From Candidatus Spyradenecus sp. (GTDB taxonomy: Bacteria; Verrucomicrobiota; Verrucomicrobiia; Opitutales; UBA953), in NCBI GenBank assembly GCA_045535075.1, contig JAZSKX010000003.1:1-17651 (forward strand): 17,651 nucleotides of DNA, in the 5' to 3' direction. Below are positions 3 to 16,591 of the stretch, one piece after another. Every line of letters begins with the position of its first letter. Positions within the stretch are counted from its first letter, which is position 1. A program made the position numbers and the translations under genes. The notes below the pieces were generated by a model, which was not told the origin of the DNA, did not search any database, and saw only the letters and a list, made by a program, of their open reading frames with translations.

Positions 3-2003
3 GCACCGGTCCCCCCGGCAATGCCGAAAACGCCGCTTGCGACTCCGCCGCCCGTTCCCGCCGCGCGCCCGAACGCTCCCGTTCCGCCGCCGATTCCCCC
101 GATGGGACGCCCGGCTTCCGCTCCCGTGCCGCCAATGCCGAGCGTTCCCGCGCCCGCAGCAACGGACGCTGCGCCCGGCAAGAAAGAAGAACTTAAAAAA
201 GTTACGATGCGCGCACCGGTCGTTGTTCGCGACCTTGCAACCGCGCTCGATGTACGTCCGTTCCGACTCATTTCCGAGCTCATGAGCATGGGCGTTTTCG
301 CTTCCCTCAATCAGGATTTGGGCGACGAAATCGCAGTCAAAGTCGCAGAAAAATACGGTTTTGAACTTGATATTCACCGCCGCGAAAAAGGCGCGCAGCA
401 GGTGAAACCCGTTGTCATCGAAAAACCCAAGCCGGTTGACGACGAAAAAGACAAGATGCCGCGTCCGCCGGTCGTTTGCGTACTCGGCCACGTTGACCAC
501 GGGAAAACTACTTTGCTCGACTACTATCGTAAATCAAACGTTACGGCAGGAGAAGCCGGCGGAATTACGCAACACGTTGCCGCCTATTCCGTCAAGCACG
601 GCGATCAGTCGATTACCTTCCTCGACACACCCGGTCACGCGGCGTTTTCAAAAATGCGGGAACGCGGTGCCGCTCTCACGGACATTGCAGTCCTCGTTGT
701 CGCCGCAGACGACGGTTTCATGCCGCAAACGGACGAGGCACTTAAATTTGCACAGAAAAACAACGTTCAGCTCGTCGTCGCGATTAACAAAATCGACTCC
801 AAGGGCGCGAACATCGACCGCGTGAAACAACAAATGCAAAAACGCGGGATCACCTCCGAAGACTGGGGCGGAACGATTCAATGCGAACCGGTTTCCGCTC
901 TCAAGGGGACAAACATGGATTCGCTCTTGGATGCGATTTTGCTCCAAGCCGAAATGATGGAATTGAAGGCAAACCCGAAATGCCCGGCGGAAGGCACCGT
1001 CGTCGAAGCCCAAATGGAACAAGGCCGCGGACCGACGGCAACCGTCATCATCCAACGCGGAACGCTCAAAACAGGCGATGCATTGGTCTGCGGACCGCAT
1101 TTCTGCCGCGTTCGCGCCATCATGGACGAATACGGAAAACCGTTGAAGCAAATCGCGCCGGGTTGCCCGGGGCGCGTCATGGGCTGGTCCGGCGTTCCGT
1201 CTGCGGGAGCGATTTTCTCGACAGTTAAAAATGCACGGGAAGCGGAAAAAATCGCCGAAGAAAATCAATACAAGCTCCGCAAGGCAATTGAAGAGGAAGA
1301 AGAAAACAAGCGTCGCGCTCAAGACGAAGAGCAAAACGCCGGTCTTTCCGACATCGAACGCCTCAACCAATTGCTCGCGGGAACAAGCGAAAAAGTTTTC
1401 AAAGTCGTTACGAAAGCGGATGTGGACGGCACGCTCGAAGCGCTCAACGCGGCGCTCGAAGCCATCAAGTCTTCCCGCGTCAAACTCGAAATCGTCGGCG
1501 GCTCCGTCGGTCCGATTACACCGAGCGACGTCAACATGGCATCGGCCTCGAATGCAACGATTGTCGCGTTCGACGTGAAGGCGGATAACGGTGTTCCCGC
1601 ACTGATGAAACGCCAAAACGTCAACCTCGTCACGCACGACATCATTTACATGTTGCTCGACATGGTGAAGGAAGCGATGGCGGAACTGCTCGACCCGGAA
1701 TTGAAGGAAAACAAAGTCGGCATGGCGGAAGCGCGTGTTATTTATCCGTTCGGGAAAAACGCCTATGTCGCCGGCTCGATGGTCACGGAAGGCAGTATTC
1801 GCCGGGACTTCAACGCGCGCGTTTGGCGCAAGGGCGAAGTGCTTCACACGGGACGCATCGACACGCTCAAGCGCTTCAAAGAAGACGTTACGGAAGTCAA
1901 AGCCGGCTACGAATGCGGGATTCGCGTTACCGGCTTCGAAGAATATCAGGAGGGCGACCTCATCGAATGCTTCGAAATCCTCAAGATTCGTCCGCCGCTG
2001 TAA
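3..2003 (+). CDS. infB: Translation initiation factor IF-2 (5'-truncated by window edge)
   Basis: G1 GHVDHGKTTL, G2 GEAGGITQH, G3 DTPGHAAF, G4 INKID, C-terminal LKRFKEDV..VKAGYECG. The frame is open from nt 3 (APVPPAM...), so the true start is probably upstream of the window. The N-terminus is Pro/Ala-rich. Confidence 0.97.
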   Translation, partial: APVPPAMPKTPLATPPPVPAARPNAPVPPPIPPMGRPASAPVPPMPSVPAPAATDAAPGKKEELKKVTMRAPVVVRDLATALDVRPFRLISELMSMGVFASLNQDLGDEIAVKVAEKYGFELDIHRREKGAQQVKPVVIEKPKPVDDEKDKMPRPPVVCVLGHVDHGKTTLLDYYRKSNVTAGEAGGITQHVAAYSVKHGDQSITFLDTPGHAAFSKMRERGAALTDIAVLVVAADDGFMPQTDEALKFAQKNNVQLVVAINKIDSKGANIDRVKQQMQKRGITSEDWGGTIQCEPVSALKGTNMDSLLDAILLQAEMMELKANPKCPAEGTVVEAQMEQGRGPTATVIIQRGTLKTGDALVCGPHFCRVRAIMDEYGKPLKQIAPGCPGRVMGWSGVPSAGAIFSTVKNAREAEKIAEENQYKLRKAIEEEEENKRRAQDEEQNAGLSDIERLNQLLAGTSEKVFKVVTKADVDGTLEALNAALEAIKSSRVKLEIVGGSVGPITPSDVNMASASNATIVAFDVKADNGVPALMKRQNVNLVTHDIIYMLLDMVKEAMAELLDPELKENKVGMAEARVIYPFGKNAYVAGSMVTEGSIRRDFNARVWRKGEVLHTGRIDTLKRFKEDVTEVKAGYECGIRVTGFEEYQEGDLIECFEILKIRPPL

Positions 2004-3373
2004 AAGGCGTTCCCGCCGATTTCGGGAAAGTTGAAAATGTTGCGCACGCAGGACAACCGCTCCGGCGTGCGTGCATTTTTACGCTCGGATGCCGCCTCAA
2101 CCAGTACGAAACGGAAGTTTTACGGGACAAACTTGCCGCGGCCGGCTATCGTGTCGTCGAGTGGGGCGAAGCTGCAGATTTGGCGATTGTCAACACCTGT
2201 ACGGTAACCGGACTTGCCGAAGCAAAATGCCGCCAGATTATTCGCGGTTTTATCAAAGCGAATCCGAACGGATTTTGCGCCGTCGTCGGCTGCTATTCAC
2301 AAACGGGAACGCCGGCACTTGCGCGAATTCCCGGTATCGATCTGATTGTCGGGAATCAGGATAAACTCAACGTCCTCAATTACGTCGGCGACGGCACGAA
2401 AAACGCCGTTCCCGTCATCGTTCGCGAGAAAATTTCCCGGGAAGATTTTTCAGTTTCTTTTGTCGGAGAAATGCCGTTTAACAAACGCGCAAATCTCAAG
2501 ATTCAAGACGGTTGCGACTTCATGTGCTCGTACTGCATCATTCCGTTTGCACGCGGCAGAGCGCGTTCCCGCGAACTCGAAAACCTGCTCGACGAAGCCC
2601 GTTCGCTGGCGGCACGCGGCGTGCGCGAACTCGTTCTCACCGGCGTTAATATCGGAACTTACAGTAACGCGGGAACGGACATCCTCGGAGTCGTCGACGC
2701 GCTTGCCGCAATTCCGGGAATTGACAGAATTCGCATCGGAAGCATTGAACCAAAGACAATTCCGGACGGCATCTTTGACCGCATGAGCGATTCCGCGCAT
2801 CCGCTGATGCCGTTTTTGCATTTACCGATTCAGTCCGGTTGCGAACGCATTTTGCGCGACATGCGCCGCCATTACACGCTTGCAGAATATCTCGAATTTG
2901 TCGAAAAAATCGCCGCACGCGTTCCCGATATTTGTATCGGAACGGACATTATGATCGGCTTCCCCGGCGAAACAGACGAAGAGTTTGCCGAAACCTGCAC
3001 GACATTCATAAACGGTCCGTTCGCGTATTGCCACGTTTTTACTTACTCCGAGCGCGCGGGAACGCCCGCTGCCCGCCGCCCCGACCGAGTCCCCGTTCCC
3101 GTACGCCAACGCCGTTCCGCCGCCTTGCGCGCGCTTTCGTCGCAAAAACGTCGCATGTTCATGGGGCGTTACCTCGGAAAAAATGTCGAAGTGCTTTTCG
3201 AAAATCCCGCCGGCAACACATTTCCGGGTTACACACGCAACTACCTGCGCGTCATCGTTCCCGCAGACGAATTCCCGGGCGAAAATCTCGCAAACCAAAT
3301 ACGAACCGTCCGCCTCGCCGAAATTTCAGGAGATGTCATTTTCGGGGAAAGATGTCCTCCTGAAACAGATTAA
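1967..3373 (+). CDS. mtaB: tRNA t6A37 methylthiotransferase MtaB (MiaB-like radical SAM)
   Basis: UPF0004 motifs TLGCRLNQYE, VNTCTVT and VGCYSQ. Radical SAM motif KIQDGCDFMCSYCIIPFARG, plus GFPGET, HVFTYSERAGT and a TRAM-like end GYTRNYLRV. ATG 1967 is the only in-frame start near the first conserved motif and follows AGGAGG at 1948-1953. The start is inferred. Confidence 0.88.
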   Translation: MLRNPQDSSAAVKGVPADFGKVENVAHAGQPLRRACIFTLGCRLNQYETEVLRDKLAAAGYRVVEWGEAADLAIVNTCTVTGLAEAKCRQIIRGFIKANPNGFCAVVGCYSQTGTPALARIPGIDLIVGNQDKLNVLNYVGDGTKNAVPVIVREKISREDFSVSFVGEMPFNKRANLKIQDGCDFMCSYCIIPFARGRARSRELENLLDEARSLAARGVRELVLTGVNIGTYSNAGTDILGVVDALAAIPGIDRIRIGSIEPKTIPDGIFDRMSDSAHPLMPFLHLPIQSGCERILRDMRRHYTLAEYLEFVEKIAARVPDICIGTDIMIGFPGETDEEFAETCTTFINGPFAYCHVFTYSERAGTPAARRPDRVPVPVRQRRSAALRALSSQKRRMFMGRYLGKNVEVLFENPAGNTFPGYTRNYLRVIVPADEFPGENLANQIRTVRLAEISGDVIFGERCPPETD

Positions 3374-3454
3374 CAATTCGCCCAAAACCGGAATCGTTCT
3401 ACGCGCCGCGATTTGCAGGTATCCGCAATAAATTTAGCGGTGGTGTAGCGTCGT

Positions 3455-3477
3455 CGTTCCCGCGGGAACGCTTTTTT
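3455..3477 (+). terminator. Probable intrinsic terminator after infB-mtaB, made of two overlapping copies of the GTTCCCGC motif
   Basis: Perfect 16-bp palindrome CGTTCCCGCGGGAACG (3455-3470) followed by C and TTTTTT, about 80 nt after the mtaB stop. Confidence 0.6.
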
Positions 3478-3567
3478 GAGTAAATGGAATCGGAATTTTA
3501 CCGACGGGCAGCGAAAGAACATGCTTCACTGCCATTTCAAAATAAGTCAGTATTAGGTGTTTTATTT

Positions 3568-5142
3568 ATGAAAAAAGTTCTTATTCCGACTAAATTGGAT
3601 ACTGTTGCAGCCAAAACGCTTGCTGCCGCCGGATACACCGTTGTTCAGGACGCGGAAACGCCGATTGACGCTCAAGTCGCGACCAACGCCGACACCGTCG
3701 TTCTCATTGTTCGTTCCGAAAAGGTCACGCCCGCGATTATCGACGCGTTGCCGAAACTCAAAATCGTTATCCGCGCCGGTGCCGGATTTGACAACATCGA
3801 CATTGCTTACGCGCGAAAGAAAAATATCGACGTGATGAATACGCCGGGCGCGAACGCCAACGGCGTTGCCGAAGAAGTCGTCGCCATGATTCTCGCCTGT
3901 TTCCGCCATCTCGTTCCCGCAGACAACACGACGCGCGCCGGACTTTGGGAAAAGAAAAAATACATGGGCCGTGAGCTGACGAAAAAAACCGTCGGCATCG
4001 TCGGGCTCGGGAACATCGGTCGATTACTTGCCAAACGCTTGCAGGGCTTTGAGCCGAATCTCATCGGCTACGACCACTTTCTCGCCAAGCAACGCGCCAT
4101 TAATATCGGCGTAACGCCCGTACCGCTCGAACAAATTTTTGAAGAAGCCGACATCATTTCGCTTCACGTTCCCGGCGGAGCTTCGACGCAAAATCTCGTC
4201 AACGCCGAATTGCTCGGGAAAATGAAAGACGGCGCCATGCTTGTAAACTGTTCCCGCTACGGCGTTGTTGACGAAGCGGCGCTCGCCGAAGTTCGCGCTT
4301 CCGGCAAGAAAATTATTTACGCGACGGATGTTCACCCGAAAGATGCGGCCGGCGACAAACCGTCCGCCGCGGTTGCGGATTTAATTCTCCCGCACCTTGG
4401 AGCCAGTACGAAAGAGGCGAATTTCAACGCAGCGAAGCGTGCCGCGGAAGAGGCGATTGCGTATTTTGATAACGGAGACACCTCCTGCGTCGTCAACGCC
4501 GAAGTTCCGCTCGGGCTTGATCCGATGCAACTTCGCCTTGCGAAAATGCTGGCGACGCTCGCCCGTCTCGTCGGCGGGAACAAGGCGATTCGCCGTGCCG
4601 ACTGCACGTTTTCGGGCAGCCTGCGTTCTTTCCGCAAATGGTTTACACCGAAATTGCTCGAAGGTTTGTTGCCGCATGCAGAAAAAGGGTTGCCGCCGCC
4701 GATGGCAGACGTTTCGATCCGCGAGCACGGAATCGTTTATCAGGCGAAGGAGCCGCTCATCGGCAACGTCGAAGAAGATTCCATCGTTCTTGAAGTCATG
4801 ACGGAAGCGGCGGAAGGCAAGCATGAAACCGTCTGCGTTCGCGGGATTGTCGCGGAGAATACTCCGATTATTTCGTCGGTTAACGGCTTTAAAGGGCTGT
4901 ACTTTGACTTGCGCGGAAATCTCCTTTTTGTGCGCTACGCAGACCGGCCGGGCGTGCTTGCGCGCATTACTTCCGTACTCGGAGACGCCGAGATTAACAT
5001 TGAAAACATCACGGCTCCGATTGATCACGAAGCCGGAGAAACACTTGCCGTCATCAAGACGAACAAACCTGTTACGCCGGCTCAGGTTTCTGCCGTCGCA
5101 ACGCTCGTTAATGCGATTTCGGCATTTTCCGTTTCGTTCTAA
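3568..5142 (+). CDS. serA: D-3-phosphoglycerate dehydrogenase, long form with C-terminal ACT domain
   Basis: RAGAGFDNID, NTPGANA, Rossmann motif GIVGLGNIG, PHLGAST.EA, ACT motif YADRPG...INIE. ATG 3568 follows the SD-like AGGTG at 3555-3559. Confidence 0.88.
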   Translation: MKKVLIPTKLDTVAAKTLAAAGYTVVQDAETPIDAQVATNADTVVLIVRSEKVTPAIIDALPKLKIVIRAGAGFDNIDIAYARKKNIDVMNTPGANANGVAEEVVAMILACFRHLVPADNTTRAGLWEKKKYMGRELTKKTVGIVGLGNIGRLLAKRLQGFEPNLIGYDHFLAKQRAINIGVTPVPLEQIFEEADIISLHVPGGASTQNLVNAELLGKMKDGAMLVNCSRYGVVDEAALAEVRASGKKIIYATDVHPKDAAGDKPSAAVADLILPHLGASTKEANFNAAKRAAEEAIAYFDNGDTSCVVNAEVPLGLDPMQLRLAKMLATLARLVGGNKAIRRADCTFSGSLRSFRKWFTPKLLEGLLPHAEKGLPPPMADVSIREHGIVYQAKEPLIGNVEEDSIVLEVMTEAAEGKHETVCVRGIVAENTPIISSVNGFKGLYFDLRGNLLFVRYADRPGVLARITSVLGDAEINIENITAPIDHEAGETLAVIKTNKPVTPAQVSAVATLVNAISAFSVSF

Positions 5143-5164
5143 TTGAACGGATAGCGGAATTCAT

Positions 5165-5206
5165 AAAGCTGCGGGAACGACCTTGGCTTCGTTCCCGCAG
5201 TTTTTT
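5165..5206. terminator. Intrinsic terminator between convergent serA and ABC exporter; stem is an inverted pair of the GTTCCCGC motif
   Basis: CTGCGGGAACGA (5169-5180), loop CCTTGGCT, TCGTTCCCGCAG (5189-5200): a perfect 12-bp stem. It is followed by T6 and preceded by AAAG, so it may be bidirectional. Confidence 0.85.
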
Positions 5207-5226
5207 GTAAAATTATCCGATCCGGC

Positions 5227-7026
5227 TCAAACGCCCTGGCGATTATAAAGCTCTTTGTAAAGCGGGCAGGAGGCGTAAAGCTCGTCGTGGGAGCCGTCGC
5301 CGACGATACGGCCCTGAGAAAAAACGAGGATGCGTTGTGCGATGCGAATCGACGAGAAGCGGTGGGCAACGATAAATGTCGTCCGCCCGCGGACGAGTTC
5401 TTCAAGTTTGTCTTGGATTTTCTTTTCGCTTTCGGAATCAAGTGCCGCCGTCGCTTCATCGAGAATCAGAATCGGAGCGTCTTTTAAAAATGCCCGTGCA
5501 ATTGCCAGGCGCTGACGCTGACCGCCGGAAACGCCGCTCCCGACATCGCCCAGCATTTTATCCAAGCCTCCGCTATTCAACACAAAATCTTCCGCCGCTG
5601 CATTGCGCGCCGCACACTCGACGGCGGCGTCGGAAGCATCCCGGTTTCCGAGGCGAATATTTTCCCGAATGGTGTCACGGAATAGAACGGCATGTTGCGA
5701 AACCAAGGCGATAAAGCGGCGAAGCGTTTTCTTTTTCAAACGGCGAATATCGATTCCGTCGACGAGGATCGAGCCGGCGCTTGCTTCGTAAAAACGCAAA
5801 ATCAGACTTGCGAACGTTGTTTTTCCCGCGCCGCTGGGCCCGACGAGCGCGACGATTTGCCCGGCGGGAACGCGCACGTTGATATCGCTCAACACCTTAC
5901 GCCCGTTTTCATAGGCGAAATCGACGTTGCGAAACTCAATCGTTCCCGCGATCCGTTCCGGCTCAAGCGGCTTGTCCGGCTCGGGCATCGTGTCGGGTTC
6001 CGTCAGAATTTCCTCCAAGCGTTCAAGCGATGCCTGGGCTTGGCTGAATTTATTAAAGGAAACGCCCGTGCGTTTAATCGCATCCGCCGCGAAAAAGAGC
6101 GCTCCGGCGATTGCCATAAAATCCGTCAAAGCCATACCGAGCATTCGCCCGCGAACGAGAACGAACGCAAGCGCAAGTGCGGTTAAAAACTCCAGAGTCG
6201 GAGTCAGCAGCTGCTGGTATTTTACGGTTTTGAGCTGAGCCCGACAGAAGCGATTGGACGCGCGAGCCATGCGCGCCACCTGAGTTTCCTCCATCGCGTA
6301 CGAACGAATTTCGCGCTGTGCGGCAAGATTTTCCTGAACGACCGCCGTCATCTCGCCGATATTTTTTTGAGCTCCGCGAGCTTTGCGGACAACACGCCTT
6401 CCGAAGACAATAATCGGCGCAACGGCGATCACGGCAAAGACTGCGCTCGCGGCAAACATTGATGCTTCGGCCTTGTCGCTCAAGACATAGACAAGCGCGA
6501 CAATCGCACTGACGGCAGTGAGCGGCTGTTTCACGATATCGCTCGAAACCTGCGTGATCATATTTTGGACATTCTGCGCGTCCGTAACGATGCGGCTCAA
6601 AAGATCTCCGCGCATTTGTTTTTCGTGAAATGCGAGCGGTAGAGTTTGCAGGTGCGAGAAAACGCCGACACGAAGATTTTCGAGAACGCGCATCCCGAAA
6701 TAATTTACCGCCATCGCATTTACCCACATCGCCAAACCGCGTATGACGAAAACAATCGGCATTGCCGCGCAAGCGGTAAAAAGAACGGCGAAACCGAGGT
6801 TTTCCGGGCTAACGTACCGCGAAATAAAATCCAAGATCGGGCGCGGCATCGTGGAGGGGTCGAAAACGGCAGGGAAAACCTTGTAAATCAGCACGGGAAT
6901 GCCGAATCCGCTTGCCGCTGCGGCAATGAGTCCGGAAATCAGCGCTAACGCCAAATACCCTTTAACCGGCCAAATGTAGCCGGCATAATGCGCGATACGG
7001 GATACGATTTTTTTTAACTTTTTCAT
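5227..7026 (-). CDS. ABC exporter, fused TMD-NBD (MsbA/ABCB family), copy 2
   Basis: N-terminal TM helices, Walker A GPSGAGKT, Q-loop VSQ, signature VSGGQRQR, Walker B ILILDEAT, H-loop AHR. Its start overlaps the upstream paralog's stop (ATGA, 7023-7026). Confidence 0.92.
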   Translation of the reverse strand: MKKLKKIVSRIAHYAGYIWPVKGYLALALISGLIAAAASGFGIPVLIYKVFPAVFDPSTMPRPILDFISRYVSPENLGFAVLFTACAAMPIVFVIRGLAMWVNAMAVNYFGMRVLENLRVGVFSHLQTLPLAFHEKQMRGDLLSRIVTDAQNVQNMITQVSSDIVKQPLTAVSAIVALVYVLSDKAEASMFAASAVFAVIAVAPIIVFGRRVVRKARGAQKNIGEMTAVVQENLAAQREIRSYAMEETQVARMARASNRFCRAQLKTVKYQQLLTPTLEFLTALALAFVLVRGRMLGMALTDFMAIAGALFFAADAIKRTGVSFNKFSQAQASLERLEEILTEPDTMPEPDKPLEPERIAGTIEFRNVDFAYENGRKVLSDINVRVPAGQIVALVGPSGAGKTTFASLILRFYEASAGSILVDGIDIRRLKKKTLRRFIALVSQHAVLFRDTIRENIRLGNRDASDAAVECAARNAAAEDFVLNSGGLDKMLGDVGSGVSGGQRQRLAIARAFLKDAPILILDEATAALDSESEKKIQDKLEELVRGRTTFIVAHRFSSIRIAQRILVFSQGRIVGDGSHDELYASCPLYKELYNRQGV

Positions 7027-8858
7027 GCGTTCCCGCCTCCGGTTGCGACTTGTTTGTCGTAAAGATCTTTGTAAAGTGCAGACTTGGCGTAGAGCTCGTC
7101 ATGCGAACCGTCGGCGACGATTTGTCCGGCTTCGAAGACGAGAATACGCTGCGCCCGACGAATCGTCGAGAAACGATGCGCGATGATGAATGTTGTCCGC
7201 CCGGTCATCAGTTCGTCGAGCGATTTTTGGATTTTCTCCTCGCTAAGCATATCGAGCGAGGCCGTTGCCTCGTCGAGGACAAGAATCGGTGCGTTTTTCA
7301 GAAACGCGCGCGCGATGGAAACGCGTTGGCGTTGCCCGCCGGAAAGCCCTTCCCCGTCTTCTCCGACGACACGTTCGTAGCCTTCCTTGCGTTCGCGGAT
7401 AAATTCATCCACGGCGGCAAGCGTTCCCGCGGCTTCGACTTCGGCGTCGCTTGCGCTCGGTTTTCCCATGCGAATATTTTCCCGAATCGTTCCTTTGAAG
7501 AGTACGGGAGTTTGGGAAACCAAGCCGACAAACTTCGTTCGGTCGGCGCGGGAAATGTCCTTGAGGTTTACGCCGTCAATTTTTACGGAGCCGGACGCGG
7601 GATCGTAGAAACGGCAAACGAGATTGATAAATGTCGTTTTCCCCGAGCCGCTGGGGCCGACAAGCGCAACAATTTGCCCGGCGGGAAAGGAAACATCGAT
7701 ATTTTTCAGGACGGGAACGCCGGGCTTGTAAGCGAAATTAACTTTTTCAAAACAAAGTTCGCCGCGAATTTTTTCAAGTTTTACAGGATTTTCCGGCTCC
7801 GGCATTTCATCTTTTGCAAAGAGGACATCGTCGATCCCGCCGAGCATTGTCGTTGCGATTTGCATTGTGTTGTAAACGTTCCCGAGGCGCTTAATCGGGT
7901 CGTAACAATAATAAAGCGCGAGCGCGATTGCCGTAAATTGAGTAAGTTCTATTCCGCCGCTTACACCGAAATAAAGCGAAACGGAAAGCGCGACGACGCT
8001 GAGGATTTCAATAATCGGCGTAAGGGCCTGCCGCCACGCCTGCATTTTAAAAATGGCGTTTACGTAGAGGCGGATTTTTCCGCGAAGCAGTGTTGTCTGT
8101 TGTTCTTCGAGGCAAAACGCACGCACATCGCGCTGCGCCGCAAGATTTTGGGAAACGACGCTCGCGACTTCATTCAAACCGGAGAGCATCTGCTTCATCC
8201 GCTTAATCATCCGGTTTCCGATTTTTTTGGTCGCGGGAATACACATTCCGGCAAGCAAAAGGTTCATCAGCAACAAGCCGACTTCGTTGCTGGCGCAAGC
8301 CTGCCACGCGAGAAATCCGAGCGCCGCCAGCAAAGTCAGCGGTTGAATGACAAGGTCGTTCGTAATGCTCAGCATCGAAGTTTGAAGCATTTGCGTATAG
8401 TAGACCGTCGTTGACATCAGGTCGCCGCGGGAACGCTTGTCGTGATAAGCAAGCGGTAATTCCTGCAAGCGGGAAAAAACCTGCAAGCGCAGTTTTTCCA
8501 AAACCTCCAAGCCGACTTTGCTGATGAGGTAGGCGTTTGCGAATGAAAATACGCCGCGAAAGAGCATGAGAGCAGGCATGGCAAGCGCTGCAGTCCACAT
8601 GGTTACAAGCGGGATCTGCTCCTCGGGAACGCGCACGGCAACCCAATTTTGCAAAAATTCCGGGAGCGGTTTTTCTCCGAAAACAATCGGGAAAACCTTG
8701 TCCATCATCATCGGCAAGCCGAAGCCCGCCGTTGCCGCAGCCAAGCCCCCGCAGAAAACGGCAAGCAGGAGAATCCCTTTTTGCGAAGCCAAATAACGCC
8801 GCCAAAAATCCAGATAAACGGCAAACAACGCAGCCTTGTTTTCTTTCTTTGACGCCAT
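7023..8858 (-). CDS. ABC exporter, fused TMD-NBD (MsbA/ABCB family), copy 1
   Basis: Walker A GPSGSGKT, LSGGQRQR, ILVLDEAT, AHR and an N-terminal TMD. ATG 8858 chosen as start; GTG 8879 is an alternative. Confidence 0.92.
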   Translation of the reverse strand: MASKKENKAALFAVYLDFWRRYLASQKGILLLAVFCGGLAAATAGFGLPMMMDKVFPIVFGEKPLPEFLQNWVAVRVPEEQIPLVTMWTAALAMPALMLFRGVFSFANAYLISKVGLEVLEKLRLQVFSRLQELPLAYHDKRSRGDLMSTTVYYTQMLQTSMLSITNDLVIQPLTLLAALGFLAWQACASNEVGLLLMNLLLAGMCIPATKKIGNRMIKRMKQMLSGLNEVASVVSQNLAAQRDVRAFCLEEQQTTLLRGKIRLYVNAIFKMQAWRQALTPIIEILSVVALSVSLYFGVSGGIELTQFTAIALALYYCYDPIKRLGNVYNTMQIATTMLGGIDDVLFAKDEMPEPENPVKLEKIRGELCFEKVNFAYKPGVPVLKNIDVSFPAGQIVALVGPSGSGKTTFINLVCRFYDPASGSVKIDGVNLKDISRADRTKFVGLVSQTPVLFKGTIRENIRMGKPSASDAEVEAAGTLAAVDEFIRERKEGYERVVGEDGEGLSGGQRQRVSIARAFLKNAPILVLDEATASLDMLSEEKIQKSLDELMTGRTTFIIAHRFSTIRRAQRILVFEAGQIVADGSHDELYAKSALYKDLYDKQVATGGGNA

Positions 8859-8868
8859 AGAAACCGGG

Positions 8869-10008
8869 CTAATCGGCACGTTCGCCGACGAATTTTTCGA
8901 GCTGATCCGCGACCACGGCAGCGCGACGGTATTGCTGCGGATTTACTTTTTCCAAATCGATACGGCATGCGCCCCGATTTTTCATCAGCGTTGCAACGAA
9001 ATCCGCAAACTCCGCATTAAATTTCTCCTGAACAAACGGCGATGCCACCGAACGTCCGGCGTTCCATTCCTCGACGTGCGGCGCAAATCCGCAAATATCC
9101 GTACAAATCACCGGTAAGCGGGAAACAACCGCCTCAATCAACACCGATCCGCCGGCTTCTTCCCGCGCGGGATGCACGAGCAAATCCATTCCGCACATCA
9201 GCTCGGGCACATCTCCCCGCCCGCCCAGATAAAAAACGGAATTTCTGATTCCCGCGTCTGTAGCGGCAGCAAAAAAATCCTTCGGATCGGAAGCGCCGAT
9301 CATAAAAAATTTCACGCGTTGCCTTCGTTCTTCCGGCAAAGCCGCGATTGCCGCAATCGCGCGATCCGCACCCTTGCGTTTAAAATCCGAACCGACCAGC
9401 GCGACCGCAAAAGCATCTCCGATGTTGAGTTCCCGCCGAACGCGTTCCCGCACTTCCGAAACATTTTTCACGTTCCCGCAACGGGAATCGAAGCCGACGG
9501 GAAGCGGAATAAAGCGAGTTTCCTGCGTGTTATACCAACGGCGATATTCGTCCTTTTGCTTTTCCGTAAGGGACAAAATTCGTGTGGCGGATTTCGGAGA
9601 AAAAACGCTTTCCTCCATTCGAAGAAAAACACGATAACGCGGAATTATTTTGCGAAACGCCCAAATTATCCGCCTGTGCAGGCTTTCCGCCAGACAGACG
9701 TCTCCGGCGAAATAAAAATCCAAGCCTTTCATGCGGTTAAAACCCAACACGCAATCAAATTTCTGAGCGCGCACAATCCGCCTGAGCTGCCGCTCGAACG
9801 ATTTTGCATAAACGTGATTGGTCATCCCGCGCAACGGAATCGTGTGCCAACGAATGCCTTCTATGGGAGCTTGCGGCAGCTCCGAATTGCGTCCGCAAAA
9901 AAGCTCGACGGAATGCCCGCGGCGCGCACACTCGCACGCCACCCGCAAAAAGTCTTTTTGCAAGCCTCCATGCGGGAAATAGCGAAATATGCATATTGCG
10001 ATTCTCAT
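8869..10008 (-). CDS. waaG: GT4 glycosyltransferase, LPS core glucosyltransferase WaaG/RfaG-like
   Basis: YFPHGGLQKDF, GFNRMKGLDFYFAGDVC, VGSDFKRKG and HPAREEAGGSVLIEA...LPVICTDICG match, from memory, the E. coli WaaG motifs YFPFGGLQRDF, GFNKMPGLDVYYAADVC, VGSDFTRKG and HPAYQEAAGIVLLEA. Confidence 0.85.
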   Translation of the reverse strand: MRIAICIFRYFPHGGLQKDFLRVACECARRGHSVELFCGRNSELPQAPIEGIRWHTIPLRGMTNHVYAKSFERQLRRIVRAQKFDCVLGFNRMKGLDFYFAGDVCLAESLHRRIIWAFRKIIPRYRVFLRMEESVFSPKSATRILSLTEKQKDEYRRWYNTQETRFIPLPVGFDSRCGNVKNVSEVRERVRRELNIGDAFAVALVGSDFKRKGADRAIAAIAALPEERRQRVKFFMIGASDPKDFFAAATDAGIRNSVFYLGGRGDVPELMCGMDLLVHPAREEAGGSVLIEAVVSRLPVICTDICGFAPHVEEWNAGRSVASPFVQEKFNAEFADFVATLMKNRGACRIDLEKVNPQQYRRAAVVADQLEKFVGERAD

Positions 10009-10166
10009 TCCGAACAAGTAACAACGCTCTTTTCATTGTAGTTGCTACGCGTTCCCGCAAGCAACCTTAAAGGCGATTCCGAAAATTAAATTTATCCCGA
10101 AAACGGAATCGGCGGCAACGCGTTCCCGCACAAATCTCAATTTTTCCGCTTTCAAACTTCCGCCTT

Positions 10167-10201
10167 CTTTAGGCTTTAAGCTTTAAGCTACAAACTCTAA
10201 C
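10167..10201 (+). repeat. Degenerate heptamer tandem repeat just upstream of cvrA
   Basis: CTTTAGG CTTTAAG CTTTAAG CTACAAA CTCTAAC, ending 9 nt before ATG 10211. Confidence 0.4.
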
Positions 10202-10210
10202 ATTCCGCCC

Positions 10211-11713
10211 ATGACGTTTACTCCGGACAACTACCTGCTTCTCGGCTCGCTACTTTTGCTCGGAAGTATCTTCGCAGGAAAGGCGACTTACAAAATCGGT
10301 GCGCCGCTGTTACTTCTCTTTCTCGGAATCGGTTTGCTGTGCGGCGAAAAAATCACGTTCACAAACTCCTCGGCCCTGAGCCTGCTCGGCGAACTCGCGC
10401 TCGTGTTCATCCTTTTCTCCGGCGGGCTCGACACCAAATACGCCGACATCCGCCCCGTTGCCGCTCGCGGGAGCATTCTCGCAACATTCGGTGTTTTGCT
10501 CACGGCGCTTTTTCTCGGCGGATTCATCTACGGAATCTCGCAACTTGAATTCGTCCCGCTTCAATTCAGCTTTGCCGAATCGCTCTTGCTCGGTTCCATT
10601 GTTTCCTCAACCGACGCCGCTTCCGTTTTCTCGATTTTTCGTTCCAAAAATACAGCCCTAAAGCACAACCTTCGTCCGCTTTTGGAATTGGAATCCGGCT
10701 CGAACGATCCGATGGCATACGTCCTCACGGCAACGCTCGTCGCCTACGTCGCAAACACCGGATCCGGAGAAGAAACACAGTCGCTCTGGATTGTTTTTCC
10801 GGACGTTCTCATCAACCTCGGTATCGGCGCTGCCGCGGGAGCGCTCTTCGGAAAAATCCTCGTCCGCGTAATCAATCGCGTCAACCTCCTCGTTGAAGGG
10901 CTTTACCCCGTCATGATGATCGCTCTGATGGCGTTGACGTTTTCGGCGACGCAGACACTTCACGGGAACGGTTTTCTTGCCGTTTACATCGCGGGCATGA
11001 TCCTCGGCAACGCGAAATTCATCCACAAGAAGATGATTATTAAATTTTACGACGGGTTCGCGTGGCTGATGCAAATTCTGCTCTTTCTCATGCTCGGTCT
11101 TTTTGCCGACATGAAATCCATTCGCGATGTCGCATTCGGCGGAATTTTAATTTCGCTTTTCCTGATTTTCGTCGCGCGCCCGCTCGCCGTCGGAGCCTGC
11201 CTTGCGCCGTTTCGACCGAACCGAAGCGTATTCGTCTTTACTTCATGGGTCGGCTTACGCGGCGCCGTTCCCATTGTTTTCGCATTAATTCCGCTAACGA
11301 CACCGGGCTTTGATCCCGAAATCGCCACGCTCATTTTTAATACCGTATTTTTCATTTCGGTTTCTTCGCTGCTGATTCAGGGAACAACGTTTTTCGCTGC
11401 GGCAAACTACCTCAAGCTCACTTGTGAATCCGACGCTCCTTCCTGTTCGGCGTTTGACAAAGACCTCGAAGAAATCAACACCCGCCTTTCGGAAATTTAT
11501 CTCGAGTCGAAACATTACGGAGCCGGGAAAACCCTCGCGGAACTCGCGTTCCCGCGCGGCGTCCTCGTCGTTATGATTAAACGCGGGAACGATTTTCTCA
11601 CACCGATCGGCTCAACTCGACTGCACGCCGGCGACATCCTGCAACTTCAGGCAGATACGCCGGAAAATCTCGCCGCCGCCCGTAAACAACTGATACGCGA
11701 AAACGATGTTTAA
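10211..11713 (+). CDS. cvrA: K+/H+ antiporter NhaP2/CvrA (CPA1) with C-terminal RCK_C/TrkA-C domain
   Basis: Many hydrophobic helices, with motifs ILFSGGLDT, SSTDAASVFS, LELESGSNDPMA and WVGLRGAVPIV. C-terminal GKTLAEL.FP...MIKR...P.GST.LHAGD. Confidence 0.9.
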   Translation: MTFTPDNYLLLGSLLLLGSIFAGKATYKIGAPLLLLFLGIGLLCGEKITFTNSSALSLLGELALVFILFSGGLDTKYADIRPVAARGSILATFGVLLTALFLGGFIYGISQLEFVPLQFSFAESLLLGSIVSSTDAASVFSIFRSKNTALKHNLRPLLELESGSNDPMAYVLTATLVAYVANTGSGEETQSLWIVFPDVLINLGIGAAAGALFGKILVRVINRVNLLVEGLYPVMMIALMALTFSATQTLHGNGFLAVYIAGMILGNAKFIHKKMIIKFYDGFAWLMQILLFLMLGLFADMKSIRDVAFGGILISLFLIFVARPLAVGACLAPFRPNRSVFVFTSWVGLRGAVPIVFALIPLTTPGFDPEIATLIFNTVFFISVSSLLIQGTTFFAAANYLKLTCESDAPSCSAFDKDLEEINTRLSEIYLESKHYGAGKTLAELAFPRGVLVVMIKRGNDFLTPIGSTRLHAGDILQLQADTPENLAAARKQLIRENDV

Positions 11714-13388
11714 AAAAACACTTATCGCCCTGGCAACCTGCGCGGGAATTGCCGTCGTCGTTCTCGGAATCTCCGCCTGCGGAGAACGCAATCCGCCGGC
11801 AAAGCGGGCTTCGGAGAAATCCGTTTTGCTCATCAACAACGGAGGCGAACCCTCTGCGCTCGACCCGCAATTCGCGCAACCCGGCGTCATCGAAAACCGA
11901 ATCATGCTCGCGCTTTTCGAAGGGCTTGTCCGCTACGACCCGAAAACACTGGAGCCCGTTCCCGCAATCGCCGAATCCCAAAGCGTTTCCGACGACGGGC
12001 TTCGCTGGACATTTCACCTGAGAAAAGACGCCGCGTTTTCCGACGGAACGCCCGTTACCGCCGACGATTTTCTCTTCTCGTTTCGCCGTATCCTCTCGCC
12101 CAAGCTTGCATCGCCCTGCGCGTCTTTGTTTTTTGCACCCGTAAAAAACGCACGCGCATTCGCCTCGGGAACGATTACAGATTTCTCCCGAGTCGGATTT
12201 TCCGCGCCCGACGCACACACGCTCGTCGTCGAACTCGAAAACCCCTGCCCGTATTTTCTCTCGCTCGCCTGCCACTCAAGCTGGAGCGTCGTTCCCGCGC
12301 ACACGATTTTGCGATTCGGCGAAATCGATTCGCGCTCCACGCTTTGGACGCGCCCCGAAAATTTTGTCGGAAGCGGGCCGTTTCGCCTGAAATCCTGGCG
12401 CGTCGCTTATCGTATCGAAGTCGAAAAAAACCCGCATTATTGGGATGCCGCCAACGTCTCCCTTAGCGGCATTCGATTCGATGCCGTCGAAGATCAATTT
12501 GCCGAAGAAGCCGCATTCAACGACGGTCAATATCACATCACAAACACCGTCCCGCCCTCGCGCGTTCCCGTTTTACGCAAAAAAAACGCTCCGCAACTTC
12601 GCCTCGATCCCTATCTTTCGACCGCGTTTATCCGAATTAACTGTTCTAAAGCTCCGCTAAACGATCCGCGTGTCCGCCGCGCGCTTTCACTCGCGCTCGA
12701 CCGCACGGCGCTTGCGGAACAAGTCATGCGAGGCGGTGAAACTCCCGCGGAAACCCTCGTTCCCGCAGACGCGTACTCCGTTTTGTATTTAAATAAAAAC
12801 AACAAAAGCACTCCGCCCGGAGAAACGCGTTCCCGCGAAGACGCGCTCCGTGAAGCGCGTGCATTGCTAGCGGAAGCCGGTTTCCCCGACGGGAAAGGCT
12901 TTCCCGAGCTCACCTACCTTTACAATACCTCCGACGGTGCCCAGTTTTTTGCACAGGCGATTCAGGAAATGTGGCGAAAAAACCTCGGCATCCGCGTCGC
13001 CCTAAAAAATCAGGAATATAAGGTCTACCGCATCAGCCTCGCCCAAGGCGATTACGAACTCGCTCGCTCGGCGTGGAGCGGCGACTATCTTGACCCGACA
13101 ACATTTTTGGAGCTTTTCGTCTCCGGCGGTCATATTAACTGGACGAAGTGGAGCGACGATCGCTACGACGCACTTCTCGCCGATGCCGCACGGGAACGCA
13201 ACCCCGAAGCCCGGGCACAAAAACTGAAAGCCGCCGAAAAAATTTTACTCGATGCCGCGCCGATTATCCCGACGCTCCATTCCCGCAGCAAATTTCTCAT
13301 TCGTCCGGAAGTCCGAGGCTGGCATCCGAACCTTCTCGATATTCATCCCTACACGGGAATAGAACTTAAGGAAACCTCTATAAATTAG
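11706..13388 (+). CDS. oppA: Peptide ABC transporter substrate-binding lipoprotein (OppA, SBP family 5)
   Basis: Signal peptide with lipobox-like ISAC, plus EPSALDP, LFEGLVRYD, WTFHLRKDAAFSDGTPVTADDF, GSGPFRL, KNPHYWD, DPRVRRALSLALDR and WSGDYLDP.TFL. Confidence 0.88.
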   Translation: MFKKTLIALATCAGIAVVVLGISACGERNPPAKRASEKSVLLINNGGEPSALDPQFAQPGVIENRIMLALFEGLVRYDPKTLEPVPAIAESQSVSDDGLRWTFHLRKDAAFSDGTPVTADDFLFSFRRILSPKLASPCASLFFAPVKNARAFASGTITDFSRVGFSAPDAHTLVVELENPCPYFLSLACHSSWSVVPAHTILRFGEIDSRSTLWTRPENFVGSGPFRLKSWRVAYRIEVEKNPHYWDAANVSLSGIRFDAVEDQFAEEAAFNDGQYHITNTVPPSRVPVLRKKNAPQLRLDPYLSTAFIRINCSKAPLNDPRVRRALSLALDRTALAEQVMRGGETPAETLVPADAYSVLYLNKNNKSTPPGETRSREDALREARALLAEAGFPDGKGFPELTYLYNTSDGAQFFAQAIQEMWRKNLGIRVALKNQEYKVYRISLAQGDYELARSAWSGDYLDPTTFLELFVSGGHINWTKWSDDRYDALLADAARERNPEARAQKLKAAEKILLDAAPIIPTLHSRSKFLIRPEVRGWHPNLLDIHPYTGIELKETSIN

Positions 13389-13444
13389 AGTTTCTGATGA
13401 GCGAGGAGAGGAAAGAGATGATAGGTATTTGCACCTCGCTTTGC

Positions 13445-13470
13445 GAAAAAGGTTTTCGAGAGCCTTTTTC
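13445..13470. terminator. Probable bidirectional terminator between convergent oppA and prmA
   Basis: GAAAAAGGTTT-TCGA-GAGCCTTTTTC hairpin with G-U pairs and flanking A5/T5 tracts. It is adjacent to a second hairpin TTCCCGC-CT-GCGGGAA (13468-13483). Confidence 0.6.
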
Positions 13471-13512
13471 CCGCCTGCGGGAACGCATTTACCCTGAGTA
13501 CTCTTCTCTCTT

Positions 13513-14394
13513 TTATTCGCGAAACAGCGCAACGTCGGACCATTCGCCCATAACGCGCCCGTCCACGCGAACTTTGCCCCAGGCTTTTTGCGCTTTTTTC
13601 TCAAAAATCTCCATGACCGATTTTTGCTCGCTCGCGAGAATCCCGCTCAACGCGAGTACGCCGCCTTCCCTGACGGAGGCGACAAGATTATCCGCATAAA
13701 TGCAAAGCACGTCGCTGATAATATTCGCCAACACAACATCGCGCGCTCCCGCCGAGCGCAAACCGCTTTCCAAACCTTCGTGAACAAAGGCGACGGCGGA
13801 TTCCGGCAAATTGTTCTTCCCGCGGTTTTCGGCGGAGACTTCAACGGCTTCGGGATCGCGGTCAAATCCGTAAACATTTTTTGCGCCGAGCTGAGCCGCC
13901 GAAATCGCAAGAATTCCGGAGCCGCAACCGGCATCCGTCACGGAAACTTCTGCGGGAACGTGCGCGTCAAGAAACTCAACCAAGCGCATTCCGCAAAGGC
14001 GCGTCGTCGGGTGATCGCCCGTTCCGAAGGCCAGACCCGCGTCGAAATAAACAACGGCATCGCCCGCGGGAACGGCGTATTCCGCGCGGCGCCATTCCGG
14101 CACCCAATGCAGGCGGCCGAAACTCCACGGATGCAAATTCGCCTTGTAGGCTTCTTTCCAATCACGATCTTCAAGCGTTCCGACTTGCGGCTTTTCGGGA
14201 AGCATTTTAAACGATTTGCGCAAATCCGCCCACGCGTCGAATGCCTCGGACTCGCTGTCGAAATAACCCATCAGCACGTGCGGAGCTCCGACTTTTTCAT
14301 GAAAAATCAGCCACGGCGAACGCACCAATTCGCAGAAAAAATCCTCAAGCGGTTGCGCCAAGGACGAATCAATTTCACAACGTGTTTCGATCAT
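13513..14394 (-). CDS. prmA: Ribosomal protein L11 methyltransferase
   Basis: DWKEAYK, AGLAFGTGDHPTT, SAM motif DAGCGSGILAI, ANI, LSGIL and a C-terminal GEW. Confidence 0.93.
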   Translation of the reverse strand: MIETRCEIDSSLAQPLEDFFCELVRSPWLIFHEKVGAPHVLMGYFDSESEAFDAWADLRKSFKMLPEKPQVGTLEDRDWKEAYKANLHPWSFGRLHWVPEWRRAEYAVPAGDAVVYFDAGLAFGTGDHPTTRLCGMRLVEFLDAHVPAEVSVTDAGCGSGILAISAAQLGAKNVYGFDRDPEAVEVSAENRGKNNLPESAVAFVHEGLESGLRSAGARDVVLANIISDVLCIYADNLVASVREGGVLALSGILASEQKSVMEIFEKKAQKAWGKVRVDGRVMGEWSDVALFRE

Positions 14395-14420
14395 TTTTCT
14401 AAGATGTAATTAAGGTTTAA

Positions 14421-14999
14421 TTATGCTTCGCCGAGAGAAATGCGCCGAATGACATCGGGAAGAATCTTGTGTTCCGCCGCATGAATTTTTTGTTCAAAGC
14501 TTTCCTGCGTATCCGTCTTTTCGCGACGGACAACCGCTTGATCGATAATCGCCCCGCCGTCCACCGCAGAATTAACGTAATGAACCGTGCATCCGCTGAC
14601 TGCGACGCCGTAGCGCCACGCCTGCCCGATGCCGTCAAGCCCCGGGAACGACGGCAACAGCGACGGATGCAAATTGATGATGCGATTCGGGAACGCATCG
14701 AGTAGCGGCGCTTTCAACACGCGCATAAAGCCAGCAAGCACAATCCAGTCCGCTCCCGCAGCTTTAACGGCTTCGGCGTAAGCGGCTTCGCACTCGGGCG
14801 AGAATTTGGTTTTGAACGGGCCCGGATTCAAGTAGCTCGCGGGAACGCCGTAAGTTTCGCCGTGCGAAAGAATCTTCGCGCCGGGGATATCGCAAAAAAT
14901 CGCAACAGGCTCAGCCTTGCCGAGCGTTCCCGCGCGATATGCCTTAAGAATTGCTTCTGCGTTAGTTCCTGTTCCCGAGCCGAGGATTGCAAATTTCAT
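14421..14999 (-). CDS. purN: Phosphoribosylglycinamide formyltransferase
   Basis: LGSGTGTN, VLAGFMRVL, NLHPSLLPSFPG, GCTVHYV...DGGAII.Q and EHKILP. ATG at 14999. Confidence 0.95.
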   Translation of the reverse strand: MKFAILGSGTGTNAEAILKAYRAGTLGKAEPVAIFCDIPGAKILSHGETYGVPASYLNPGPFKTKFSPECEAAYAEAVKAAGADWIVLAGFMRVLKAPLLDAFPNRIINLHPSLLPSFPGLDGIGQAWRYGVAVSGCTVHYVNSAVDGGAIIDQAVVRREKTDTQESFEQKIHAAEHKILPDVIRRISLGEA

Positions 15000-15116
15000 A
15001 CCGAAAAAACTACTCCCGTTCCCGCTCAAATGCGAGAGAGAATTATTTCGCAACGTTTTCGGACTTTAAGCTCAAAAACGAAAAATGCCGCGAAAGAGTT
15101 CCCGCACAACGACGCT

Positions 15117-15923: not shown

Positions 15924-15984
15924 AAATTAAATAAAACCGCATTTAACACCAATGCAGGGGTATAAACGAATACGAATTTTCAAC

Positions 15985-16010
15985 AAGAGGAACACAGCGC
16001 TATTCCTCTT
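15985..16010 (-). terminator. Possible hairpin/terminator downstream of the zinc-ribbon gene
   Basis: Minus-strand AAGAGGAAUA-GCGCUG-UGUUCCUCUU stem; the U-tail is weak. Confidence 0.35.
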
Positions 16011-16055
16011 CTACTCGTGCCCCTTCGTTATTTGACATTAGCGTTAGAAACGACT

Positions 16056-16577
16056 TTAAACTGCACAGAGAATCGACAGAGCAAAAAGTACGCACCAAAC
16101 AATCGTGTAGGCAGGACCGTCCTGAAGAAGCTTTGCCCGCTTATAGAGATAAACCGGAATAATGGCTGTTGCCCAACCGAAATCGGACATATTGAGCTTC
16201 TGTTTCCCCAAATTACTCTCGTCTATATAGCAAAGAACAATATTCAAGATAAGACAACCGCCGCCGAGCCCGATGATAATATCCAGAGTCAGCGGAACAA
16301 TCGCAATCGCCCAAGCGAAAATCATGTTTTTCCGAACGTCTTCGGGAGATAAATCCTCCACGGCGACAAAATCTTCTACAGTTTCGCCTTCCGGAGTCTC
16401 CGCGTTATCCTCGACTTCCGGCGGCGCCGCAAGATCAAGAGATTCCTGCGGGAACGGCTCCTTTAATTTCGCTTCTTCTCCCGCAGAAGCGTTTCCCGTT
16501 TCCCCAACAGCGTTCCCGCAGCTCGGGCAAAAATTTGACGTTTCGGGAAGCTCTTTCCCGCAATGAATGCAAAACAT
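16056..16577 (-). CDS. Zinc-ribbon domain membrane protein
   Basis: N-terminal MFCIHCGKEL...NFCPSCG, an acidic linker and C-terminal hydrophobic segments with IIPVYLYKRA. ATG 16577 is preceded by GGAAAGGA. Confidence 0.78.
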   Translation of the reverse strand: MFCIHCGKELPETSNFCPSCGNAVGETGNASAGEEAKLKEPFPQESLDLAAPPEVEDNAETPEGETVEDFVAVEDLSPEDVRKNMIFAWAIAIVPLTLDIIIGLGGGCLILNIVLCYIDESNLGKQKLNMSDFGWATAIIPVYLYKRAKLLQDGPAYTIVWCVLFALSILCAV

Positions 16578-16591
16578 TGAATCCTTTCCGA

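Follow-up and report, generated by a model that had tools for sequence, protein, structure and literature searches.

The locus examined here raises a simple question: why should one short word recur throughout a stretch of bacterial DNA, both between genes and inside them in every reading frame? The stretch, hereafter the window, is the 17,651-nt contig C4 (JAZSKX010000003.1) of the Candidatus Spyradenecus sp. assembly GCA_045535075.1, which is referred to as G000 (1,949,087 bp, 18 contigs, 52% GC, 99.45% complete). The word, in its 8-nt form GTTCCCGC, is found 42 times in the window, 27 times on the plus strand and 15 times on the minus strand, compared to 1.50 copies expected. The expectation is the mean of 200 dinucleotide-preserving shuffles, of which the richest held 5 copies and none held 42. 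A preliminary description of the window had proposed that the pressure behind the word acts on DNA and not on protein, and that it reshapes the proteome in the manner of the DNA uptake sequences (DUS) of Neisseriaceae and the uptake signal sequences (USS) of Pasteurellaceae. From the whole genome and its relatives we infer a drive at the level of DNA, akin to DUS, USS, and HIP1; its most probable form is an uptake signal, a reading to which we assign a probability of about 0.45.

The word and its abundance in the genome

The enrichment extends to all of G000, where GTTCCCGC occurs 4,032 times (2,082 and 1,950 copies on the two strands), or 2.07 per kb. Longer and shorter forms show that this 8-mer is not the whole motif. 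The 7-nt core GTTCCCG is present in 6,528 copies, the 9-mer CGTTCCCGC in 3,244, and the 10-mer GCGTTCCCGC in 1,614; the commonest 8-mer of the genome is CGTTCCCG (5,159 copies) and the commonest 12-mer is GCGTTCCCGCGA (317 copies). GTTCCCGC is therefore the core of a 9- to 10-mer, (G)CGTTCCCGC, and the full word is (G)CGTTCCCG(C/T), which is short and non-palindromic; GTTCCCGC itself differs from its reverse complement and is no palindromic octamer. The flanks are not conserved beyond ∼12 bp. Since base frequencies return to background ∼3 bases on either side of TTCCCG, the element is a word and not part of a longer repeat. Not all positions are equally strict. Any one-base departure within the five core positions TCCCG is found at or below background, whereas the word tolerates other bases at positions 1 and 3 and, in 1,266 copies, a T for the C at its last position. 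The sequence GCGGGAAC happens to occur inside an unrelated Patescibacteria repeat.

Codon choice and reading frames

For coding analyses, 1,420 genes covering 85% of G000 were called with a crude caller, so that the DNA counted as intergenic takes in some uncalled genes; the GT4 glycosyltransferase gene of the window, with a codon score too low for the caller, was entered by hand. At least one core is present in 1,253 of the 1,420 genes, and only 23 of the 802 genes of at least 900 nt have none. Inside called genes, which hold 83% of the 8-mer copies, in frame, the density is 2.0 per kb compared to 2.4 per kb in intergenic DNA. All six frames are used across the genome, as had been noted for the window, and each is enriched over the expectation from codon usage (63-, 30-, 12-, 43-, 42-, and 49-fold). 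Enrichment in all six frames together with the intergenic copies means that the force acts on double-stranded DNA and not on protein, as the preliminary description had held, nor on RNA.

The imprint on codon choice was measured for two tripeptides, Val-Pro-Ala (VPA) and Ala-Gly-Thr (AGT). Outside the motif, GTT makes up 38% of Val codons, and CCC and CCG make up 21% and 69% of Pro codons. These values predict that 7.9% of VPA tripeptides would be coded with GTT-CCC, compared to the 91% observed (812 of 888). Likewise, 93% of AGT tripeptides (1,112 of 1,201) are coded with GCG-GGA, so that ∼92% of all VPA and AGT tripeptides are captured by the word. In the window, the capture of VPA is complete, as had been observed: all 13 are coded GTT-CCC-GCN (6 GCA, 4 GCG, and 3 GCC) and none in any other way. 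Genome codon usage, the explanation against which this observation was to be checked, does not account for the counts.

Imprint on proteins

The word has also changed which tripeptides the proteins contain. Among tripeptides seen at least 100 times in G000, VPA and AGT are the most overrepresented (5.0- and 4.9-fold), followed by RER (3.7-fold), TGT (3.5-fold), VPV (3.0-fold), and RSR (2.8-fold), and permuted tripeptides such as VAP, PAV, GAT, and TAG are near 1. VPA that is not coded by the motif is depleted, with 76 occurrences compared to ∼163 expected from composition, which indicates that preexisting VPAs were largely recoded too.

A comparison with orthologs shows the same trend. The set comprised 92 pairs (∼40,900 residues in each genome, 48% amino acid identity) between G000 and G019, a motif-free genome from another genus of the same family. 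VPA, RER, and RSR are ∼5 times rarer in the G019 orthologs than in those of G000 (12 versus 65, 6 versus 30, and 3 versus 16, respectively), and FPQ falls from 10 to 1. The contrast is weaker for AGT (106 in G000 versus 66 in G019, 1.6-fold), and G000 shows no excess of the permuted controls. In the motif-rich congener G003, tripeptide counts are equal to or above those of G000. Neither codon usage nor equal tripeptide frequencies in a motif-free relative explain the pattern away, and the proposal that a DNA-level pressure reshapes the proteome holds.

These data also bear on a protein- or codon-level cause, in which VPA and AGT peptides would be selected for their own sake or a codon-pair bias would generate the word. 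That VPA and AGT head the list of enriched tripeptides is what such a cause predicts. However, the other four frames are enriched although they encode unrelated peptides, the word is enriched in intergenic DNA, CCC is a minor Pro codon, and VPA outside the motif is depleted instead of favored, which leaves this cause a negligible probability.

Where the copies fall within proteins is less selective than had been suggested. Several copies were thought to sit in segments under low constraint, which is plausible for the named examples in IF2 and the ABC transporter: over its first ∼53 residues, IF2 fails to align with even its closest relatives, and the ABC copy lies 3 residues before the C terminus. 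No genome-wide rule follows from them. When motif positions were mapped onto conservation between G000 and G019, motif-coded residues were 48.5% identical among those aligned compared to 47.8% for other residues, and the unaligned fractions were 12.6% and 12.2%, respectively. A weak trend exists at the level of genes, with 2.9 and 1.6 copies per kb in genes of 60 to 70% and 70 to 80% identity and 3.4 to 4.2 per kb below. Findlay and Redfield (PMC2817400) likewise report USS- and DUS-coded residues to be as conserved as others.

Alignments further address whether the copies might derive from a dispersed mobile repeat like a repetitive extragenic palindrome (REP) or a miniature inverted-repeat transposable element (MITE), or from fragments of one. 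Intergenic hairpins made of inverted word pairs would suit such an element, but the conserved sequence ends at ∼12 bp, most copies lie in frame inside genes, and sites that touch an alignment gap are few, 6 versus 268 scored against G003 and 28 versus 233 against G019, no more often than other residues do. Because word sites rarely touch gaps, the copies arose by base substitution and not by insertion. A mobile origin is extremely improbable.

Distribution among relatives

The nearest relatives by IF2 are uncultured gut Opitutales, including Candidatus Spyradenecus and Candidatus Spyradosoma. The 10-mer was found in all 19 genomes of the genus, at 138 to 3,301 copies compared to 8 to 35 for the reversed-word control. 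In 22 genomes from outside the genus (6 from four other genera of the family and 16 from other families), it was found only 0 to 49 times, like the control word. The word is hyperabundant throughout the sampled species of a single gut Opitutales genus and at background outside it, and it is kept at high density in relatives that span 46 to 64% GC.

Individual sites are also shared between motif-rich species. G003, with 3.3 9-mers per kb and 69% amino acid identity to G000, has the same 8-mer at the orthologous place for 47.0% of G000 sites (n = 264), compared to 12.1% for control 8-mers. With the sparse congener G014, sharing drops to 6.1% for the word and 7.6% for the controls.

Such site sharing, ∼4 times that of control 8-mers, is one of the points in favor of a HIP1-type word, that is, a word selected for a chromosome-level function (nucleoid organization, repair, or methylation-linked marking) and read by resident DNA methyltransferases. 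HIP1 (GCGATCGC) of cyanobacteria is 15- to 300-fold enriched with more than one copy per gene, and selection on it is argued from the conservation of sites between genomes (PMC5861425). The word studied here resembles HIP1 in having more than one copy per gene, in occurring in all frames and between genes without a gene-level role, and in being conserved above control; its density (2 to 4 per kb) and its enrichment over chance fall within the reported HIP1 range. HIP1 is palindromic, phylum-wide, and tied to two conserved orphan methyltransferases, whereas the word is asymmetric and limited to a genus, and none of four DNA methyltransferase Pfam families, scored by family presence only, is common to all motif-rich genomes. 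PF01555 is absent from G000, G004, and G006; PF00145 from G004, G005, G006, G009, G011, and G012; PF02384 from G003, G008, G012, and G018; and PF02086 from 9 of the 19 genus genomes. We therefore regard a HIP1-type function as unlikely. It may, however, merge with the uptake reading, because HIP1 has itself been proposed as an uptake or transformation signal in a preprint (10.64898/2026.06.24.733823). HIP1 is reportedly treated as a transformation or uptake signal in another preprint as well.

Other repeated words were seen in relatives. In G014, the top word GGGTTGGTGGTG was considered as a replacement signal (a dialect switch) and rejected, as it forms clustered arrays and is not dispersed. 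It reaches 0.88 per kb (L111-L120, L145-L147). The clusters have an ∼18-bp period, occur on one strand or the other, and lie close to the ends of contigs; as an array-type repeat, the word probably breaks the G014 assembly. Neither G000 nor G003 contains it. In an uncultured Opitutae contig whose IF2 is 65% identical (L006:1-14298), GCGGAGGAA(A) has 17 copies over 14.3 kb, 13 on one strand and 4 on the other, versus 0.28 expected; other Opitutae lineages may own different hyperabundant words, of which this could be an example. In three further Opitutales loci (L009, L010, and L035; GC 44 to 47%), TTTTGCCG/CGGCAAAA is dispersed on both strands at ∼1 per kb, a modest enrichment in L010 (22 versus 4.8 expected). 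GGGTAGGGACGAC-type words of G019 (L088, L091, and L092), with 45 to 52 copies in the 397-kb sample, are a local repeat family, present on both strands and confined largely to three stretches of 20 kb. Finally, perfect tandem arrays were found at contig ends in two other Opitutales or Puniceicoccales bins, with an 8-bp unit, TTGAGCCG, in L023:16822-16913 and a 7-bp unit, GACCCAA, in L017:2-115.

Orientation, islands, and terminators

Three features of chromosome anatomy were analyzed. First, the word has no replication polarity. The leading strand was set from genomic intervals oriented with the strongly skewed, FtsK-orienting polar sequence (KOPS)-like word GGG[AC]AGGG, and CGGGAAC was on it in 51.5% of the intergenic copies (n = 610) and 51.7% of the full set (n = 3,828), the two orientations being about equal. 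The only orientation bias is relative to genes, with 61% on the sense strand for leading- and lagging-strand genes alike, in keeping with the more common codons in the AGT frame. A polar Chi/KOPS-type chromosome signal, read by RecBCD/AddAB or FtsK, would also be a short, non-palindromic word overrepresented in native DNA and absent from islands. Chi and KOPS are strongly strand-polar with replication and far rarer, however; the leading-strand shares contradict such polarity, and the word is 10 to 100 times denser than known Chi or KOPS. This makes a polar signal very unlikely. A separate KOPS-like candidate does exist in G000, since GGG[AC]AGGG is skewed by contig and tracks GC skew (r 0.77): GGGCAGGG and GGGAAGGG are split 12:1 and 12:0 on C1 and 0:6 and 1:12 on C5, with skew also on C8, C15, and others.

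These observations exclude three explanations: a cause at the protein or codon level, a mobile repeat, and a polar signal of the Chi/KOPS type. What remains is a process that recognizes double-stranded DNA and creates or preserves the word.

Second, the word is scarce in recently acquired DNA, as expected for uptake sequences. Gaps of more than 2.56 kb without the word number 16, compared to ∼1 expected. Ten motif-poor stretches were examined, mostly of low GC (41 to 50%, with two at 52 to 55%), and they are defense or mobile islands. Their genes include a C5 methylase with an NgoBV-type endonuclease and an AAA_15 ATPase, a reverse transcriptase, a type I specificity subunit, TniB, and a DEAD/UvrD helicase fusion. 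A scan of the ten stretches against Rfam gave no match, which rules out rRNA operons as their content.

Third, the copies pair in one particular way. At spacings of 10 to 19 bp, the arrangement GTTCCCG-loop-CGGGAAC is found 136 times, compared to 22 to 39 times for the other three arrangements. Of the 163 close pairs with a loop of at most 12 bases, 126 lie entirely between genes, as a rule with an A-run on one side and a T-run on the other. From this architecture and the predicted folds, the inverted pairs are modeled to form transcription terminators.

Pairing is also informative about neutral biased mutation or mismatch repair, by which an enzyme in the cell would turn near-cognates into a functionless word, as in very-short-patch repair. 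Near-total synonymous capture, the lack of one-off core variants (expected if near-matches are quickly converted), and roughly equal coding and intergenic densities agree with such a bias. However, it does not predict a single terminator arrangement (136 compared to 22 for the reverse one), a Vsr-family endonuclease was not found in the 99.45%-complete G000, and we know of no repair bias that yields the ∼200-fold enrichment seen for the 9-mer. We consider a repair bias quite unlikely.

To see whether phages carry the word, viral contigs were scanned with the 14-base palindrome GTTCCCGCGGGAAC. Most of the 80 loci recovered matched by chance; their median core density was 0.37 per kb, the seed itself included. 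Selection by the word is also circular. The sole locus that looked host-like was L180 (IMG/VR, 15.2 kb, 63% GC), with 23 cores and 9 nine-mers (1.5 cores per kb), which may be a prophage or a phage of a GC-rich member of the genus.

Copies in the window

The genes of the window, annotated with Pfam, encode IF2, an MtaB-like radical-SAM enzyme, a SerA-like dehydrogenase, two ABC exporters, a GT4 glycosyltransferase, an Na/H exchanger, a family-5 solute-binding protein (OppA-like), PrmA, a PurN-like formyltransferase, an ion channel, and a zinc-ribbon protein. The copies are listed in Table 1. The earlier tally of frames, with its coordinates, stands for VPA (13), AGT (6), R/C-S-R (4), RER/REL (3), and FPR/FPQ (2), but xGN occurs 6 times and not 5. 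The copy at 15018 lies upstream of the PurN Pfam domain, which begins at residue 19, so that its coding status hangs on the start call; depending on that call, 34 or 33 copies are coding and 8 or 9 are intergenic. The two inverted pairs differ in predicted stability. The short palindrome with a T-run at 3455 to 3476 folds weakly when taken alone (−9.7 kcal/mol, z −0.8), and the hairpin at 5162 to 5206, a predicted bidirectional terminator, folds at −27.8 kcal/mol (z −6.4).

The GT4 gene (8869 to 10017, minus strand) is confirmed by Pfam in spite of its codon usage and may have been acquired, yet it carries three word copies inside 51 bp (9429 to 9479). At the end of the window, where GC is low (0.48), a superinfection-immunity open reading frame (ORF) (PF14373; 16592 to 17008, minus strand) overlaps the zinc-ribbon gene (16056 to 16658, minus strand).

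TABLE 1 Copies and inverted pairs of the word along the window
Position	Strand	Gene or region	Tripeptide or feature
54..61	+	IF2	VPA (aa 18, Pro-rich N-terminal arm)
144..151	+	IF2	VPA (aa 48)
656..663	-	IF2	Sense strand reads (M)RER
1377..1384	-	IF2	AGT (aa 459)
1593..1600	+	IF2	VPA (aa 531)
2009..2016	+	MtaB-like radical-SAM gene	VPA, close to start
2565..2572	+	MtaB-like gene	RSR
2669..2676	-	MtaB-like gene	AGT
3056..3063	-	MtaB-like gene	AGT
3257..3264	+	MtaB-like gene	VPA
3455..3476		Intergenic, after MtaB-like gene	Two inverted overlapping copies (CGTTCCCGCGGGAACG), then T-run; terminator-like
3913..3920	+	SerA-like dehydrogenase	VPA
4250..4257	+	SerA-like gene	CSR
4574..4581	-	SerA-like gene	GGN
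5162..5206		Between convergent genes	Inverted pair (5171-5178, 5191-5198) as hairpin with 16-bp stem, flanked by A-rich stretch and T-run
5864..5871	-	ABC transporter 1	VPA
5942..5949	+	ABC transporter 1	AGT
7029..7036	+	ABC transporter 2	GGN at aa 615 of 618 (C-terminal tail)
7423..7430	+	ABC transporter 2	AGT
8427..8434	-	ABC transporter 2	RSR
9429..9436	+	GT4 glycosyltransferase	(R)REL
9444..9451	+	GT4 glycosyltransferase	(V)RER
9472..9479	+	GT4 glycosyltransferase	CGN
10051..10058	+	Intergenic, divergent GT4 / Na/H exchanger	
10122..10129	+	Intergenic, divergent GT4 / Na/H exchanger	Second copy
11548..11555	+	Na/H exchanger	(A)FPR
11583..11590	-	Na/H exchanger	RGN
11958..11965	+	Family-5 solute-binding protein (OppA-like)	VPA
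12291..12298	+	OppA-like gene	VPA
12759..12766	+	OppA-like gene	VPA
12829..12836	+	OppA-like gene	RSR
13477..13484	-	Intergenic, convergent OppA-like / PrmA	
13952..13959	-	PrmA	VPA
14066..14073	-	PrmA	VPA
14839..14846	-	PurN-like formyltransferase	VPA
14926..14933	+	PurN-like gene	AGT
15018..15025	+	PurN-like gene, coding or 5′ leader	SGN, residue 10 of longest ORF
15098..15105	+	Intergenic, PurN-like / ion channel	
16448..16455	-	Zinc-ribbon protein	(P)FPQ
16512..16519	+	Zinc-ribbon protein	CGN

An uptake signal as the proposed source of the word

The pattern as a whole, an asymmetric and lineage-limited word that lies in both orientations without replication polarity, is written in all frames, shifts tripeptides, builds terminators, and is scarce in acquired DNA, fits DNA uptake sequences. 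The site sharing between G000 and G003 and the background level of one-off variants at TCCCG also count in favor of this reading, as signs that the word is maintained. In the mechanism we propose, the uptake apparatus (type IV pilus, ComEC, and DprA) would bind word-bearing fragments preferentially, and their recombination would spread new copies and restore mutated ones, a form of molecular drive. Selection would act merely by removing copies that damage proteins. Terminators would be built from inverted word pairs, the stem sequence being free to vary, and newly acquired islands would be DNA in which the word has not yet accumulated. Genes for parts of such an apparatus are present. ComEC is intact in all 19 genomes of the genus, and G000 encodes DprA, a PilM-x-x-secretin operon, and, beside RecD2, a cluster of PilB, a PilT-like protein, a second PilB, and PilC.

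The word shares many traits with USS (AAGTGCGGT / ACAAGCGGT) and DUS (GCCGTCTGAA). Each is a non-palindromic word of 9 to 10 bp present lineage-wide in thousands of copies and in both orientations. Inverted pairs of DUS and USS serve as terminators, like the word pairs here. According to PMC2817400, USS and DUS occupy all reading frames with two dominant ones and an ∼40/60 strand split (39/61 here), their encoded tripeptides are enriched, their coded residues are as conserved as others, and they are scarce in genes without homologs in relatives. For instance, the same source gives 956 USS in ORFs of Haemophilus influenzae, split 40/60 between the strands and enriching their tripeptides 1.8- to 2.7-fold on average. 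The word differs in its phylum (Verrucomicrobiota), in its unrelated sequence, in its restriction to one genus rather than a family, and in its strength: density is 2 to 4 times higher, and tripeptide enrichment is ∼5-fold compared to the 1.8- to 2.7-fold in that source. It also differs in that the word is known from genomes, and uptake preference, competence, and a receptor are predicted.

Several observations weigh against an uptake signal. First, four congeners with intact ComEC are poor in the 9-mer: G014 carries 0.23 per kb, and the values for G001, G002, and G013 lie between 0.37 and 0.40 per kb. ComEC, DprA, and secretin are also found in motif-free relatives, which means that competence genes are merely permissive; as a discriminator between carriers and non-carriers they were tried and rejected. 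Second, recognition of the apparatus is incomplete. ComEA was not recognized in G000, where the sole strong HHH_3 match lies in an 805-aa frame, a size typical of Tex rather than ComEA. No receptor for the word was identified, though no candidate was sought; in Neisseria, the DUS is reportedly bound by a ComP-like minor pilin. Third, spacing and density count against it. Short-range spacing is near Poisson (coefficient of variation, 1.09; variance/mean, 0.94 in 1-kb intervals), and the 9-mer density of 1.7 to 3.3 per kb is 2 to 4 times that of published USS/DUS (0.8 to 0.9 per kb, from counts given in PMC2817400). Finally, the lineage is uncultured and known from metagenome bins, which makes preferential uptake a prediction, and a literature listing on natural transformation in Verrucomicrobiota gave no report. 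The density of the word is closer to that of HIP1.

In a full-text literature search, no paper dealt with the word, and none reported an uptake signal or natural transformation for this group. The phenomenon is of a known kind; what is new is the lineage, the word itself, and how strongly it is imprinted. To our knowledge, sequence-biased uptake with a genomic signature is established only in Neisseriaceae and Pasteurellaceae, with cyanobacterial HIP1 lately put forward as a third case. Tentatively, and with a little less confidence than in the uptake reading itself, the word could represent a third, independent family of uptake signals, the first in Verrucomicrobiota and the densest yet seen.

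If this is true, an uncultured gut Opitutales genus would be capable of natural transformation and would strongly prefer its own DNA, and a clear case from gut Verrucomicrobiota would show that such words arise repeatedly. The density range within the genus (0.23 to 3.3 9-mers per kb) offers a built-in comparison for locating the responsible gene. The word is also a simple marker that separates native from acquired DNA and can assist binning and host assignment in the lineage. With tripeptide shifts of 5-fold and codon capture above 90%, it is a stronger natural example of a DNA-level drive that overrules codon choice and alters protein sequence.

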